Positions 8,804 to 12,666 are shown, numbered from the stretch's first letter. The stretch is DNA of 24,000 bases from an uncultured Candidatus Woesearchaeota archaeon (GCA_963835585.1 CAWIGF010000003.1:217347-241346), one strand, 5' to 3'. Translations and numbers: made by a program. Notes: generated by a model not told the origin, from the sequence alone.

Positions 8804-10576
8804 ATGAATTATGCCGATTTGGTGGATGTTTATGAAAAACTTGAGAAGACAACAAAGCGTCTAGAAAAAACACATATTCTTTCCGAATTCCTGAAGACAG
8901 TCAGCATTGATTCCTTGCCGTATGTTGTTCTTCTGCTGCAAGGAAATGTCTACCCTGCTGTGGAAGAGAAGAAGATTGGTGTTGCTGCCAAGCTAGTTCT
9001 GAAGGCATTGGCTGCGGCTACTGGCATTCCTTCCAACAAGGTCGAAAACCTATGGGCAAAAACGGGCGATTTGGGAGAGACTGCACAACAAATGATTTCC
9101 AAGAAGAAGCAAGTCACGCTATTCAAGACAGACATTACTGTAAAGAAAGTCATGGAGAATCTCAGGAAACTCGCTGAGATGGAAGGTGAAGGAACCGTTT
9201 CAAGAAAAGTCGATTTGATTTCTGAACTGCTAACTTCAGCCACTCCAAGGGAGGCAAAGTTCATAATAAGGACTGTACTCGAGGAATTGCGCGTCGGTGT
9301 CGCGGACGGAACACTTCGGGACGCAATAGTATGGTCGTTCTTTGCGAAGGACATAGGGTTCACATATGAATCGAATGAGAATGATTTCGTTGTTAAAGAC
9401 AGGCAACTCTACCAGAAATATGTAGATGCGGTGCAGCATGCATATGATTTGGTAAACGATTTCTCTGAGGTTATTGTTGTGGCGAAAGAAAAGGGACTTG
9501 CAGGCCTTGAAAGAATGTCGCTGAAACCAGGAGTTCCTATCAAAGTCATGCTCTATAAAAAAGCGAAAGACATAAAGGATGCTTTCGAGACAGTTGGAAA
9601 GCCGGCGCAGCTGGAATATAAATTCGACGGGTTCAGGATTGAGGGGCACAAGACTAACGGAAAAATAATTCTCTATACGCGTCGATTGGAAAATGTGACG
9701 CATCAATTTCCTGATTTGGTGCAGTTCATCAAGGAATACGTTAAGGCGGATAATTTCATCATTGACTCGGAGGCAGTTGGTTATGATCCGAAGACAAAGA
9801 AATATCTGCCTTTCCAGAAGATTTCGCAAAGAATAAAGAGAAAGTACGACATAAACGAGATGGCGGAGAAATTCCCCGTCGAATTGAATGTATTTGATAT
9901 AATTGAATTGAACGGAGAGAGTTGTCTGCACAAACCTTTCAAAGAAAGGAGAAGATTGCTTGAGAAGATAATTCCAAAGCAGCAGCTGTGGAAGATTAAG
10001 CTGGCAAATGCAATTGTAACTGATGATGAGAAAAAAGCGACAAAATTCTATCATGAATCGCTTGAGGCAGGCAATGAAGGCATTATGGTAAAGAGTTTAA
10101 TCGAAGGCTACCAACCGGGTTCTCGTGTAGGATACGGCATGAAAGTCAAGCCAATCATGGAGACTCTTGATGTTGTCATTGTGGGAGCTGAACATGGAGA
10201 AGGAAAGCGTGCGGGTTGGTTGAGTTCATTTGTCATCGCGTGCCTTGATGAAGACACTGATGAACTTGTTGAGATAGGCAAGGTAGCGACAGGATTCAAG
10301 GAAAAATCAGAAGAAGGTACGAGTTTCGATGAGATGACTGATCTGTTAAAGCCTTTGATTATCGAGGAGAGGGGGAAGATAGTGAAGGTTAAGCCAAAAA
10401 TTGTCATCGAAGTTGCGTATGAGGAAATACAGAAATCTTCTGAGTATTCATCCGGTTATGCATTGCGGTTCCCACGCTTGGTTAGGTTAAGAGAAGATAG
10501 GGGTCCTGACGATGCATCCACATTAAGAGAAGTCGATATTTTGTACAAGAATCAAAGGGGAAGGAATGAAAAATAA
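8804..10576 (+). CDS. lig: ATP-dependent DNA ligase (archaeal Lig1-type)
   Basis: 590 aa. N-terminal DNA-binding domain, adenylation motif I EYKFDGFR (KxDG), EGIMVK, OB-fold and C-terminal LRFPRLVRLREDR, all typical of archaeal/eukaryotic ligase I. Confidence 0.96.
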   Translation: MNYADLVDVYEKLEKTTKRLEKTHILSEFLKTVSIDSLPYVVLLLQGNVYPAVEEKKIGVAAKLVLKALAAATGIPSNKVENLWAKTGDLGETAQQMISKKKQVTLFKTDITVKKVMENLRKLAEMEGEGTVSRKVDLISELLTSATPREAKFIIRTVLEELRVGVADGTLRDAIVWSFFAKDIGFTYESNENDFVVKDRQLYQKYVDAVQHAYDLVNDFSEVIVVAKEKGLAGLERMSLKPGVPIKVMLYKKAKDIKDAFETVGKPAQLEYKFDGFRIEGHKTNGKIILYTRRLENVTHQFPDLVQFIKEYVKADNFIIDSEAVGYDPKTKKYLPFQKISQRIKRKYDINEMAEKFPVELNVFDIIELNGESCLHKPFKERRRLLEKIIPKQQLWKIKLANAIVTDDEKKATKFYHESLEAGNEGIMVKSLIEGYQPGSRVGYGMKVKPIMETLDVVIVGAEHGEGKRAGWLSSFVIACLDEDTDELVEIGKVATGFKEKSEEGTSFDEMTDLLKPLIIEERGKIVKVKPKIVIEVAYEEIQKSSEYSSGYALRFPRLVRLREDRGPDDASTLREVDILYKNQRGRNEK

Positions 10577-10832
10577 GAATCTGATTGAATTTTACGGCAG
10601 GGAGTGCCCTCATTGCAAACGGATTGAGCCTGTTGTTAAGGAATTTGAGAAGAAGTTCGGGGAAATAACAAAGTTTGAAATCTGGCATGATGCCGAGAAT
10701 AAAAGTTTATTTGATTCATTCGCTTCAAAGCGCTGCAATGGCGTTCCATTCTTTTTCAACACAGAGAACAAAAAATTTATTTGTGGGGAGTGTGATTTAG
10801 GGCAATTAGAAGAGTGGATGACTGGTTCTTAG
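10566..10832 (+). CDS. thioredoxin-fold CxxC protein (paralogue B)
   Basis: 88 aa. CPHC motif, CNGVPFF, KFICG. The start overlaps the ligase 3' end by 11 nt. Confidence 0.78.
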   Translation: MKNKNLIEFYGRECPHCKRIEPVVKEFEKKFGEITKFEIWHDAENKSLFDSFASKRCNGVPFFFNTENKKFICGECDLGQLEEWMTGS

Positions 10833-10900
10833 TTTTTTCATAATGAGTTCATTCTTTTGGTTGCAACAATAGCTGTACCTGTAGGATAGTGGATAGTAAT

Positions 10901-10910
10901 ATTTATATAT
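10901..10910 (+). promoter_or_regulatory. TATA box (atttatatat)
   Basis: Centre is about 27 nt upstream of ATG 10932. Confidence 0.5.
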
Positions 10911-10931
10911 TGTAAATTTTCTTGAATTTAT

Positions 10932-12098
10932 ATGAGAATTCTTTTATCAAAAAAGTCAAGAAAATACTTGTTTGAGTTTTTGAAACAAAAATATGTAGTT
11001 GATACATTGCCATCTCTTTCTCATAAACTCAAAATTCCATATGATACTTTTAAGAAATGGGCATATGGCGATGTATACCTTCCGAGTTCCATAATCCCTT
11101 CTGAACTAACTGGATTGAAAGTTATTGATCAACGCGAGGAAGGTTGGGGTCGTAAAAAAGGAGCGTCAATAGGAGGAAAGAGAAATGTTGAAATCATGAA
11201 GCAGCGACTTGGCGAAAAGAGGTATTTTGAGGTCAGAAGCAAGCTCGGTACAAAAATAATGCATAGTCTGTGGAGGAAATACGGATCAAATCTGACTAAT
11301 CGTGCGATTAGTGCAAGAATTCGAATACGGGAACGGAGTGCTTCACAACTAGAGGAACAACACAGTTCATTCTTTACTAATCAGATCGTTACATTAAATA
11401 ATTCGACTATTTCATTTAGTAATGCAGACAAGAAGAAAAATATACAATTTCCAACCGAAATGACATCCGAACTTGCCGAGGAAATTGGAATTCATCTCGG
11501 GGATGGATGTATGTCTTACAATCGAAATTATTTCTCTGTGAAGTGCAATAAAAAAGAAGAAGACTATATGTGTGGTAGATTGTTTTATCTTTACAAAACT
11601 CTTTATGGTGTGAATCTTAATCTTATGAGACTGCCAAGTGTTTCTGGGTTTGAAATATATTCAAAAGCATTATGTGAATTCAAGAATAAAATTCTGGGTA
11701 TTCCTCGTGGCGAAAAAGTCGGACGCATTAGAGTTCCTTCTGTAGTACTCAAAACTAAAAACAAGAGCATATATTGCTCTTTTATTAGGGGACTCTTCGA
11801 TACGGATGGTTGTATTCACTTACGTTATGGAAAATATCCTGTTATATCTATTGGAATACATTCAGAGATACTAATGGCACAAGTTGGTGAGATGCTGAAG
11901 AAAATGGGATTTTTGCCAGCTGTGTATGATAAGGCAGTAATATTGAGTGGTTTCACCATGCTAAGAAAATGGTTAAAATACATAGGTTCAAATAATCCTG
12001 TCAAACTTAGGAAACTCAATTGGGCGAGTAGTTCAGTGGATAAAATTATCGGTTGCGGTCCGGTAGACCGGGGTTCGATTCCCCGCTCGCTCGTTTGA
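10932..12098 (+). CDS. free-standing double-motif LAGLIDADG homing endonuclease-like protein with N-terminal HTH-like region; 3' end reads through the tRNA gene
   Basis: Two LAGLIDADG-type motifs: LAEEIGIHLGDGCM (~11472-11510) and FIRGLFDTDGCI (~11781-11816). Family-typical C-terminus LRKWLKYIGSNNPVKLRKL. No stop until TGA 12096-12098, so the last ~25 codons are tRNA sequence. Confidence 0.85.
   Translation: MRILLSKKSRKYLFEFLKQKYVVDTLPSLSHKLKIPYDTFKKWAYGDVYLPSSIIPSELTGLKVIDQREEGWGRKKGASIGGKRNVEIMKQRLGEKRYFEVRSKLGTKIMHSLWRKYGSNLTNRAISARIRIRERSASQLEEQHSSFFTNQIVTLNNSTISFSNADKKKNIQFPTEMTSELAEEIGIHLGDGCMSYNRNYFSVKCNKKEEDYMCGRLFYLYKTLYGVNLNLMRLPSVSGFEIYSKALCEFKNKILGIPRGEKVGRIRVPSVVLKTKNKSIYCSFIRGLFDTDGCIHLRYGKYPVISIGIHSEILMAQVGEMLKKMGFLPAVYDKAVILSGFTMLRKWLKYIGSNNPVKLRKLNWASSSVDKIIGCGPVDRGSIPRSLV
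12022..12093 (+). tRNA. tRNA-Arg (anticodon GCG), no intron, no encoded CCA
   Basis: Hand fold. Acceptor GGGCGAG/CTCGCTC (one G-U). U8 A9. D-arm GTTC-AGTGGATA-AAAT (weak: 3 pairs plus a C/A mismatch). Anticodon stem ATCGG/CCGGT, loop TTGCGGT. Variable AGAC. T-arm CGGGG-TTCGATT-CCCCG. Discriminator G. Confidence 0.8.
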
Positions 12099-12116
12099 TT
12101 CTTTGTTGTGATTTTC
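12094..12116 (+). terminator. T-rich tract after tRNA (tttgattctttgttgtgatttt)
   Basis: Oligo-T runs immediately 3' of the tRNA; archaeal termination uses oligo-T. Confidence 0.3.
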
Positions 12117-12134
12117 GCAAGGAAGAATCTAAAC

Positions 12135-12641
12135 TTACATCTCGTCCATTTCTATCTTGAGAATATTTTCCTTCGCTTGTATTTCCTTAAATTTTTTGTC
12201 AAGCCTGAAGAAAGATTGTGAATCAATCTGCCTTTCGAGAATAGGGATTCCTTTGTTGATCATTGAGAAGACATGGGCCTTTACCGTCAATTCCGTGAGT
12301 CCTGTTCTCATAGAAATGTCCCCGTAACTAAGAGGGGTCTGCTCAACCGCATATAAAACCATGAACACTTGTTTTTCTGATTCCGTAAGGGAGAATTCCT
12401 TGTTCTGCGAGATCGCTTTAGATACCAAGAAGTGTATCTCATCAACCTGCTCCCTGAGTTTCTCGAGCTTCAACTCAATTTCATCAAGCTGCGATCCGTG
12501 ATTAGTGAGTTCATCTGTATTTTCATTTATGGAAGTCAAATGATCATCCATTTCGTCGCGAACAGCCTTGAATGCAGAACGAACGTGTCTATCGAGCTCA
12601 ACCAACTGAGACTCCTCTTTTTTACTTCTGAACATTACCAT
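12135..12641 (-). CDS. coiled-coil plus C-terminal winged-HTH putative transcription regulator
   Basis: The N-terminal half has heptad-like periodicity (LDEIELKLEKLREQVDEI). The C-terminal region QVFMVLYAVEQTPLSYGDISMRTGLTELTVKAHVFSMINKGIPILER looks like a MarR/TrmB-style wHTH. The ORF track starts at GTG 12659; ATG 12641 fits the TATA spacing. Divergent from the 992-aa surface gene. Confidence 0.55.
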   Translation of the reverse strand: MVMFRSKKEESQLVELDRHVRSAFKAVRDEMDDHLTSINENTDELTNHGSQLDEIELKLEKLREQVDEIHFLVSKAISQNKEFSLTESEKQVFMVLYAVEQTPLSYGDISMRTGLTELTVKAHVFSMINKGIPILERQIDSQSFFRLDKKFKEIQAKENILKIEMDEM

Positions 12642-12666
12642 CCCCACTGAGACAATCACAAATTCA

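Follow-up and report, generated by a model that had tools for sequence, protein, structure and literature searches.

A LAGLIDADG reading frame that runs into a tRNA gene

The window analysed here, a stretch of 24,000 nucleotides of DNA (G000:C3:217347-241346), comes from an uncultured Candidatus Woesearchaeota archaeon, a small DPANN archaeon with a genome of 1.08 Mb, 39% GC and 99% completeness, whose relatives carry the labels Nanoarchaeota, Woesearchaeota and Pacearchaeota. Its plus strand, on which the features described below lie unless otherwise stated, contains at positions 10932-12098 an open reading frame (ORF) of 388 amino acids for a LAGLIDADG endonuclease, recognised by the Pfam model LAGLIDADG_3 (PF14528) with an E-value of 2.2e-8. 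This ORF has no stop codon of its own. A tRNA-Arg(GCG) gene (12022-12093) starts within its last conserved codon, the frame stays open through the whole tRNA, and a TGA follows at 12096-12098, in agreement with the read-through reported in the initial annotation. The tail of the ORF that is encoded by the tRNA (12022-12098; 25 codons and the TGA) was disordered in the structure model, with a predicted local distance difference test (pLDDT) value below 50. Contigs from peat metagenomes, which are DNA of low depth and may stem from the sample that gave the genome assembly, agreed with 11913-12084 and 11999-12335, including the junction, with zero differences. We refer to the ORF and the tRNA together as the cassette, to its tRNA as the cargo tRNA, and to the tRNA-Arg gene that it appears to interrupt as the resident gene.

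The N-terminal ~170 amino acids of the endonuclease (10932-11441) form an extension, which AlphaFold modelled with a pLDDT of 88. Its residues 5-67 are weakly similar to a helix-turn-helix (HTH) domain and are followed by three long helices; many XRE/Cro-type HTH domains aligned with these residues at VIA-align Z-scores of 4.4-5.3, which are below the caution level of the tool. Foldseek returned no match to the extension at E≤0.001, and nothing specific was found in Pfam or NCBIfam. The rest of the protein is a double-motif LAGLIDADG domain of the monomeric type (11442-12021), with motif 1 at 11487-11510, motif 2 at 11790-11813 and the end of the conserved protein at 12021. The model (pLDDT 88.9) displays the LAGLIDADG fold in two copies of the alpha-beta-beta-alpha-beta-beta-alpha unit. 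In the Foldseek search, this C-terminal half matched I-Tsp061I (2dch; template modelling (TM) score 0.69) and I-DmoI (TM ~0.70) with E-values of 1e-7 to 1e-4, and intein endonuclease domains were matched too. Both catalytic-type motifs are intact, as had been noted before: GDG occupies residues 190-192 and DTDG residues 290-293, D191 and D292 are invariant across 29 homologues, and every invariant residue of the family is retained. The ratio of nonsynonymous to synonymous substitution rates (dN/dS) was 0.15-0.23 in the closest pairs, showing that the endonuclease is under purifying selection.

The tRNA-Arg(GCG) gene is complete. The Rfam tRNA model matched 12022-12093 over its full length with 52.2 bits, as compared with a gathering score of 29, and ARAGORN called a tRNA-Arg(GCG) at 12021-12094 as the sole tRNA in the window, confirming its status as a tRNA. 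The cloverleaf, the conserved elements and the anticodon of a functional tRNA are all present, with two caveats: one D-stem pair is mismatched, and the computed fold departs from the cloverleaf. The D stem is weak, consisting of a G10-U25 pair, two U-A pairs and a C13.A22 mismatch. One pattern match and one ARAGORN call identified this copy as the single tRNA-Arg(GCG) found in the genome; a second one, the presence of which would have weakened the case for this copy, was not found in the 99%-complete assembly. Nor was a site of the resident type, within 4 mismatches, present anywhere in the genome. The codons CGU and CGC together amount to 5.5 per 1000 codons in the genome. Judging from these sequence features, the cargo copy probably functions as a replacement tRNA.

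The 32 nt at the 5' end of the cassette (10900-10931) contain a TATA box at ~10902-10909, centred ~26 nt ahead of the ATG, which is the putative promoter of the endonuclease. Since the TATA box lies at this distance and no Shine-Dalgarno motif is evident, the endonuclease mRNA is likely to be leaderless. A TATA-like octamer, AAATAATC, is found inside the ORF at 11990-11997, in codons for Asn-Asn-Pro, and spans -32 to -25 relative to the +1 of the tRNA; it is part of an AT-rich stretch flagged in the initial annotation. The TATA boxes of endonuclease-free tRNA-Arg genes (G004, G014 and others) are located at the same distance. Homologues have kept both the motif and its distance from the tRNA, a conservation for which protein constraint alone may account, and the conservation of the box at synonymous sites, as judged by eye, was not convincing. 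The octamer is a candidate internal promoter and may serve the cargo tRNA. RNase P RNA is present in the genome (149.5 bits), making it possible that RNase P excises the tRNA and leaves a non-stop endonuclease mRNA. For the same reason, we rejected the idea that the organism lacks RNase P and owes the exact junction to a leaderless tRNA transcript.

Nested tRNA-Arg genes in related loci, and a remnant in the window

About 85 database proteins, with 41-55% identity over the full length, have a tRNA joined in the same frame. The C-terminus leads into the tRNA 5' end in one fixed frame in all 82 homologues that could be anchored; the codon of the residue preceding the tRNA-coded tail ends in G in 75 of the 82, and the tail begins with Ala (tRNA bases 3-5) in at least 69 of them. 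The constant frame, the G-ending codon and the Ala start indicate that the junction is fixed to the nucleotide. The tail is 2-30 amino acids long, with a stop wherever the tRNA sequence supplies one, and the homologues showed no conserved stop ahead of the tRNA. The varying stop and the disordered tail bear out the earlier judgement that the abutment, rather than the read-through, is the notable part, and the suggestion of a mobile LAGLIDADG gene that borrows its stop codon from tRNA sequence was likewise supported. At the DNA level, a tRNA-Arg(GCG) is joined at the conserved protein end in 14 non-duplicate loci and two apparent duplicates (L036/L043 and L038/L047 are apparently the same sequences from two collections). 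In the variants L046 and L052, the endonuclease has its own stop codon and a spacer follows, indicating that the ORF-tRNA fusion is inherited but not obligatory.

In these relatives, the cassette is enclosed by pieces of another tRNA. Positions 1-24 of that tRNA, comprising the acceptor 5' strand and the D arm, end 32 nt (34 nt once) before the ATG in nine loci, and a TATA-like box directly follows this 5' remnant in all nine. A 3' remnant, comprising the T arm, the acceptor 3' strand and the discriminator, lies just past the cargo tRNA in 7 of 12 loci, with scores of 30-54 as compared with a shuffle maximum of 24; in L043 and L054 it also includes the anticodon arm. The acceptor strand of the 3' remnant is complementary to the 5' remnant of the same locus. 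The outer pieces are decaying: the anticodon loop is mutated in L054, the T stem is broken in L047, and further 3' pieces have broken T stems too or are truncated. A pattern search for tRNA-Arg(GCG) without an endonuclease returned 30 loci. We found that the outer remnants are of the commonest type among the endonuclease-free tRNA-Arg(GCG) genes of the phylum, whereas the inner tRNAs share one different acceptor-stem type in 12/12 loci, as compared with 4/28 endonuclease-free genes; the cargo tRNA of the window has the acceptor stem of this cassette type. One of those four genes (L133:1446-1568; G267:C1) is an inner-type tRNA that lies between both resident-type remnants with no endonuclease gene, and is probably the footprint of an endonuclease loss.

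Some loci of this subfamily have interrupted tRNA genes. In L052:2600-2800 (Ga0209541_10000118), the spacer between the endonuclease and the tRNA-Arg(GCG) holds a TATA box, and the D arm of the tRNA is interrupted by ~21 nt, which separate the loop from the 3' strand of the stem and lie ~3 nt from the cassette insertion point. This D-arm intron may break the target site. In several cargo tRNA-Arg genes (L041, L042 and L053), the anticodon is followed, at the canonical position, by an intron of 12-57 nt.

What is left in the window of the 5' part of the resident tRNA-Arg(GCG), a decayed piece with the acceptor 5' strand, the D stem and the D loop, was located by profile and alignment at 10878-10897 (possibly 10872-10899). 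The profile, made from the upstream regions of 10 other loci, matched no part of the window better than 10878-10928 (E 0.011). When 10878-10897 was aligned to the tRNA-Arg of two genomes of the same genus, the scores were 26 for G014 and 24 for G004, as compared with a shuffle mean of 13 (p=0.002 each). There was no alignment with the commoner GCCCC-type tRNA-Arg (p=0.58), and the comparison with the window's own inner tRNA gave p=0.12. Since the remnant matches the G014/G004 type and not the common type, the insertion target appears to be the lineage's own tRNA-Arg gene. The corresponding empty site is seen in G004, in which the ligase stop codon is followed by 33 nt with a TATA box and then by an uninterrupted tRNA-Arg(GCG), with neither thioredoxin nor endonuclease. 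G014 has no Arg-type cassette, and the sole family homologue there adjoins a tRNA-Thr gene. From its remnants, the window would hold an old insertion in which the 5' remnant has decayed and the 3' remnant has been lost.

The cargo tRNA shows 6-7 differences from the resident tRNA of the genus in 21 positions; these are clustered at the insertion point and include the weak D stem, and the flanks are identical. The anticodon arm of the cargo tRNA (12047-12059) is, over 13 nt, identical to that of the same-genus resident tRNA-Arg (compared with L035 and L151), unlike the other cargo tRNAs, perhaps because this patch was converted from the 3' remnant that has since been lost. Upstream of the cassette, an ATP-dependent DNA ligase is encoded at 8804-10576 and a small thioredoxin, identified by Pfam, at 10566-10832; the thioredoxin gene overlaps the end of the ligase gene by 11 nt. 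Downstream, a spacer (12094-12134) precedes a convergent gene (12135-12659).

Homologues of the endonuclease were present in 183 of 401 genomes across the phylum, with full-length matches in 3 of the 401. In this wider family, ARAGORN alone placed a tRNA where the protein homology ends in at least 63 of 108 loci, a lower bound; 49 of these tRNAs are on the strand of the endonuclease gene and 14 are convergent. Individual subfamilies go with particular tRNAs, among them His(GTG), Arg(GCG), Arg(UCG) and Ile(GAU). The tallies of homologues, of the pattern search and of the 108 loci include the unpublished genomes G395, G243 and G359, and L026 (G395) is among the 108, with no tRNA call; none of the statements on sequences depends on these three genomes. 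In the source genome of the window, the family is represented by one intein copy and three free-standing paralogues, each of the latter being closely followed by a tRNA gene in the same orientation. In L003 (G000:C3:290374-291521; 349 amino acids), the stop codon falls within the D loop of a tRNA that was read by hand as tRNA-Val(GAC), with ~22 nt of intron in the same loop; this tRNA was missed by Rfam and mislabelled by ARAGORN. L002 (G000:C3:187499-188644; 259 amino acids) is a shorter paralogue in which the N-terminal extension is missing; 200 nt separate it from a downstream tRNA-Ser(GCU), the anticodon region of which contains a 59-nt insert. Flanking remnants were not detectable at the tRNA-Val and tRNA-Ser loci of the source genome.

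In the His subfamily (L058-L075), a 5' remnant of tRNA-His(GTG) and a TATA box precede the ATG, and in two of these loci the ATG picked as the ORF start by the script falls within the D loop of the remnant. No 3' remnant was visible in the His-subfamily loci, and few extra T-loop motifs were seen past the linked tRNA in other subfamilies. At L137:1480-2982 (G147:C1), the 3' part of a tRNA-Arg(GCG), from the D loop to the end, is exactly repeated 1.4 kb downstream, with two small ORFs on the same strand in between. We rejected this tRNA pair as an endonuclease cassette; it is a different element and looks like a small integrated one. At G000:C3:1972-2739, ARAGORN called a tRNA-Lys(CUU) with a 681-nt intron, which may be a false call or another interrupted tRNA.

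A proposed homing cassette with a replacement tRNA and its alternatives

We propose, with a probability of about 0.74, that the ORF and the tRNA constitute a homing-endonuclease cassette in a resident tRNA-Arg(GCG) gene, to which it brings a variant replacement tRNA. Of the two options offered in the initial annotation, the second, namely the remnant of an element insertion, is the one that holds, as the locus is an element insertion. The mobile unit would be ~1.2 kb long and comprise a TATA box, a leaderless endonuclease gene without a stop codon and a complete tRNA-Arg(GCG). Its entry after about position 24, where the D arm gives way to the anticodon stem, would destroy the resident gene, the function of which would be taken over by the cargo tRNA. 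The endonuclease is envisaged to recognise the segment from the D loop to the anticodon stem of resident tRNA-Arg genes and to introduce a double-strand break in it; repair would then copy the cassette in, with the two tRNA halves as homology. By differing exactly around the insertion point, the cargo tRNA would escape cleavage. It could be transcribed from the internal TATA-like box, or be cut by RNase P from a read-through transcript. Movement of such a unit is consistent with a comparison of L043 and L049, which are 83.5% identical in nucleotide sequence across the 1100-nt endonuclease gene and have no detectable similarity in their flanks beyond the remnants. We consider the odds to be even for the broader view that these cassettes are natural "home-and-rescue" drives on tRNA genes, which repeatedly overwrite tRNA alleles across DPANN archaea; on this view, a protein nuclease directed at an essential tRNA gene would spread by virtue of its close linkage to a replacement resistant to cleavage.

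Several observations weigh against this proposal. The computed minimum-energy fold of the unmodified cargo tRNA is not the cloverleaf, and the alternative is ~7 kcal/mol lower. Some tRNA-Arg genes of the cassette type stand alone (L148 and L149), and the type is therefore not exclusive to cassettes. The putative recognition sequence is placed by the insertion point (about tRNA position 24/25) alone, and cleavage there is a prediction. In the window, local alignments with four tRNA-Arg references detected no 3' remnant (p>0.6 against shuffles), the 5' remnant is weak, with the profile E-value of 0.011, and the nested architecture is drawn mainly from the relatives. Concerning mobility, L047 and L051 share syntenic upstream flanks, indicating that some inheritance is vertical, and the identity of the endonuclease correlates more with that of the outer remnant (rho 0.61) than with that of the cargo tRNA (rho 0.32). 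The former correlation fits transfer mostly among related hosts and fits vertical descent too, and much of the inheritance may be vertical. The protein of the window shares no more than 55% identity with its nearest relative, and an endonuclease-free allele was not seen in the low-depth metagenome contigs; in the source genome, the element may have settled long ago and lost its mobility.

These last points favour the explanation that the cassette arose as proposed and is now an old, vertically inherited relic, immobile, with its endonuclease kept for a host function or by chance. The distant nearest relative (55% identity), the decayed remnants of the window, the metagenome contigs without an empty allele and the syntenic flanks of L047 and L051 are all compatible with such a relic. 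However, all the invariant residues are retained under purifying selection, the cassette is absent from both same-genus genomes, the L043 and L049 cassettes lie in unrelated contexts, and full-length matches occur in just 3 of the 401 genomes searched; we regard this explanation as unlikely. A free-standing endonuclease that homed beside a resident tRNA-Arg gene and merely overlaps it, the tRNA being a property of the host, was the first option of the initial annotation, and is quite improbable in our estimation. Although the ORF does abut the tRNA and use its sequence, and although the tRNA-Val and tRNA-Ser paralogues have no detectable remnants around them, the ORF-tRNA pair is flanked in many loci by the remnants of a second, different tRNA-Arg, of which the window has the 5' side upstream of the ORF. 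In addition, the association of the endonuclease with its linked tRNA type persists across orders, and the empty site of the same genus has a different tRNA-Arg type. These data point to the tRNA as the cargo of the cassette rather than as a pre-existing neighbour.

The pieces on both sides could alternatively be the exons of a giant bulge-helix-bulge intron of the resident tRNA, spliced into a working tRNA. Archaeal LAGLIDADG genes are classically intron-encoded, and the insertion lies at a site where non-canonical tRNA introns occur, for example the D-arm intron of L052. Against this, the outer 3' pieces are truncated or mutated, and absent in the window; the insert itself contains a complete tRNA-Arg(GCG); and by inspection the junctions lack a 4-bp helix flanked by 3-nt bulges. 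With neither intact exons nor a bulge-helix-bulge motif found, and with the flanking tRNA pieces decayed or missing, the intron that had been considered at the outset was rejected as very unlikely. Adjacency by chance has next to no probability left: an open stretch of 25 codons is by itself unremarkable, but the identical junction in ~85 homologues and the linkage to tRNA genes of at least 63 of the 108 wider-family loci refute it. Taken together, the data favour the homing cassette in the resident tRNA-Arg gene over these alternatives.

Comparison with known systems

The closest published kind of element is the mobile ORF (mORF) of fungal mitochondria, described for atp6 of Allomyces macrogynus and for atp6, atp9, cox2 and nad3 of Glomus sp. 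(PMC3630166). The mORFs bring a foreign replacement C-terminus, and the native one is left as a remnant (PMC3630166). Like the cassette, they place a LAGLIDADG ORF (in mORFs also a GIY-YIG ORF) within an essential gene and bring a divergent copy of the displaced part; the native remnant is unexpressed, and the ORF can be in phase with the host sequence and lack its own stop codon. The features that characterise mORFs were found in the present system as well. The endonuclease ORF lies within an essential host gene, both halves of which are seen in relatives and the 5' half in the window. The divergent copy of the displaced sequence is the inner tRNA, which is of another type and the sole copy in the genome, and the native remnant is nearer to the gene of close relatives than the inserted copy is. 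The two systems differ in that mORFs target protein genes and carry a C-terminal piece, whereas the cassette targets a tRNA gene and carries a complete one. Moreover, the cassette, unlike mORFs, splits the native gene mid-way with remnants on both sides, its ORF runs into the cargo while the cargo of mORFs precedes the ORF, and its hosts are DPANN archaea.

I-DmoI and I-Tsp061I have the fold of the C-terminal 200 amino acids of the cassette enzyme (TM ~0.7), with the two motifs and the conserved acidic residues. Both are archaeal monomeric double-motif homing endonucleases encoded in spliced rRNA introns. Unlike them, the cassette enzyme is free-standing, has a 170-amino-acid extension at its N-terminus and is accompanied by a replacement gene instead of being spliced out. 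Among phage enzymes, SegB is a GIY-YIG endonuclease that is intergenic and spreads with co-conversion of neighbouring tRNA sequence. It resembles the cassette in being a free-standing homing endonuclease gene among tRNA genes, and differs in that it is not known to have a disrupted resident copy or a nested architecture. SegB, an enzyme of the phage T4 type in a tRNA gene cluster, is named in PMC13096335. Integrative elements of tRNA genes, of which L137 appears to be an example, resemble the cassette in that the insert restores the interrupted tRNA and leaves a partial repeat. Such elements use an integrase and duplicate the 3' part of the tRNA only, whereas the endonuclease is the sole protein of the cassette, and the whole tRNA is swapped for a different allele.

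Homing endonuclease genes are thought to persist in essential genes inside self-splicing introns or inteins. We found the invasion of an essential gene by an endonuclease with a spare copy described solely for the protein genes of fungal mitochondria, and in the part of the literature covered we found no published description of tRNA-targeting LAGLIDADG cassettes in archaea or in bacteria of the candidate phyla radiation (CPR). The cassette would take another route to persistence, with a spare whole RNA gene in an archaeon and a layout so compact that the cargo supplies the stop codon of the ORF. For genome annotation, it accounts for ORFs that run into tRNAs and for tRNA-like fragments adjacent to them. 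Should the enzyme prove active, nucleases with a specificity for tRNA genes would become available from this source, and there would be a testable route for the horizontal replacement of tRNA alleles and for the origin of the oddly placed tRNA introns of DPANN archaea. If the home-and-rescue view is true, selection would favour tRNA alleles with a disrupted target, for example through a weak D stem or an intron next to the cut, and this could be among the causes of the unusual, fragmented tRNA genes in DPANN archaea.

Synthetic cleave-and-rescue and home-and-rescue drives combine a nuclease directed at an essential gene with a resistant rescue copy, and have been engineered with Cas9 in insects. 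An active cassette enzyme would make the present system a natural counterpart of the engineered cleave-and-rescue drives. The cassette shares their logic, with a cargo tRNA that is presumably resistant to cleavage, but it is natural, protein-guided and archaeal.

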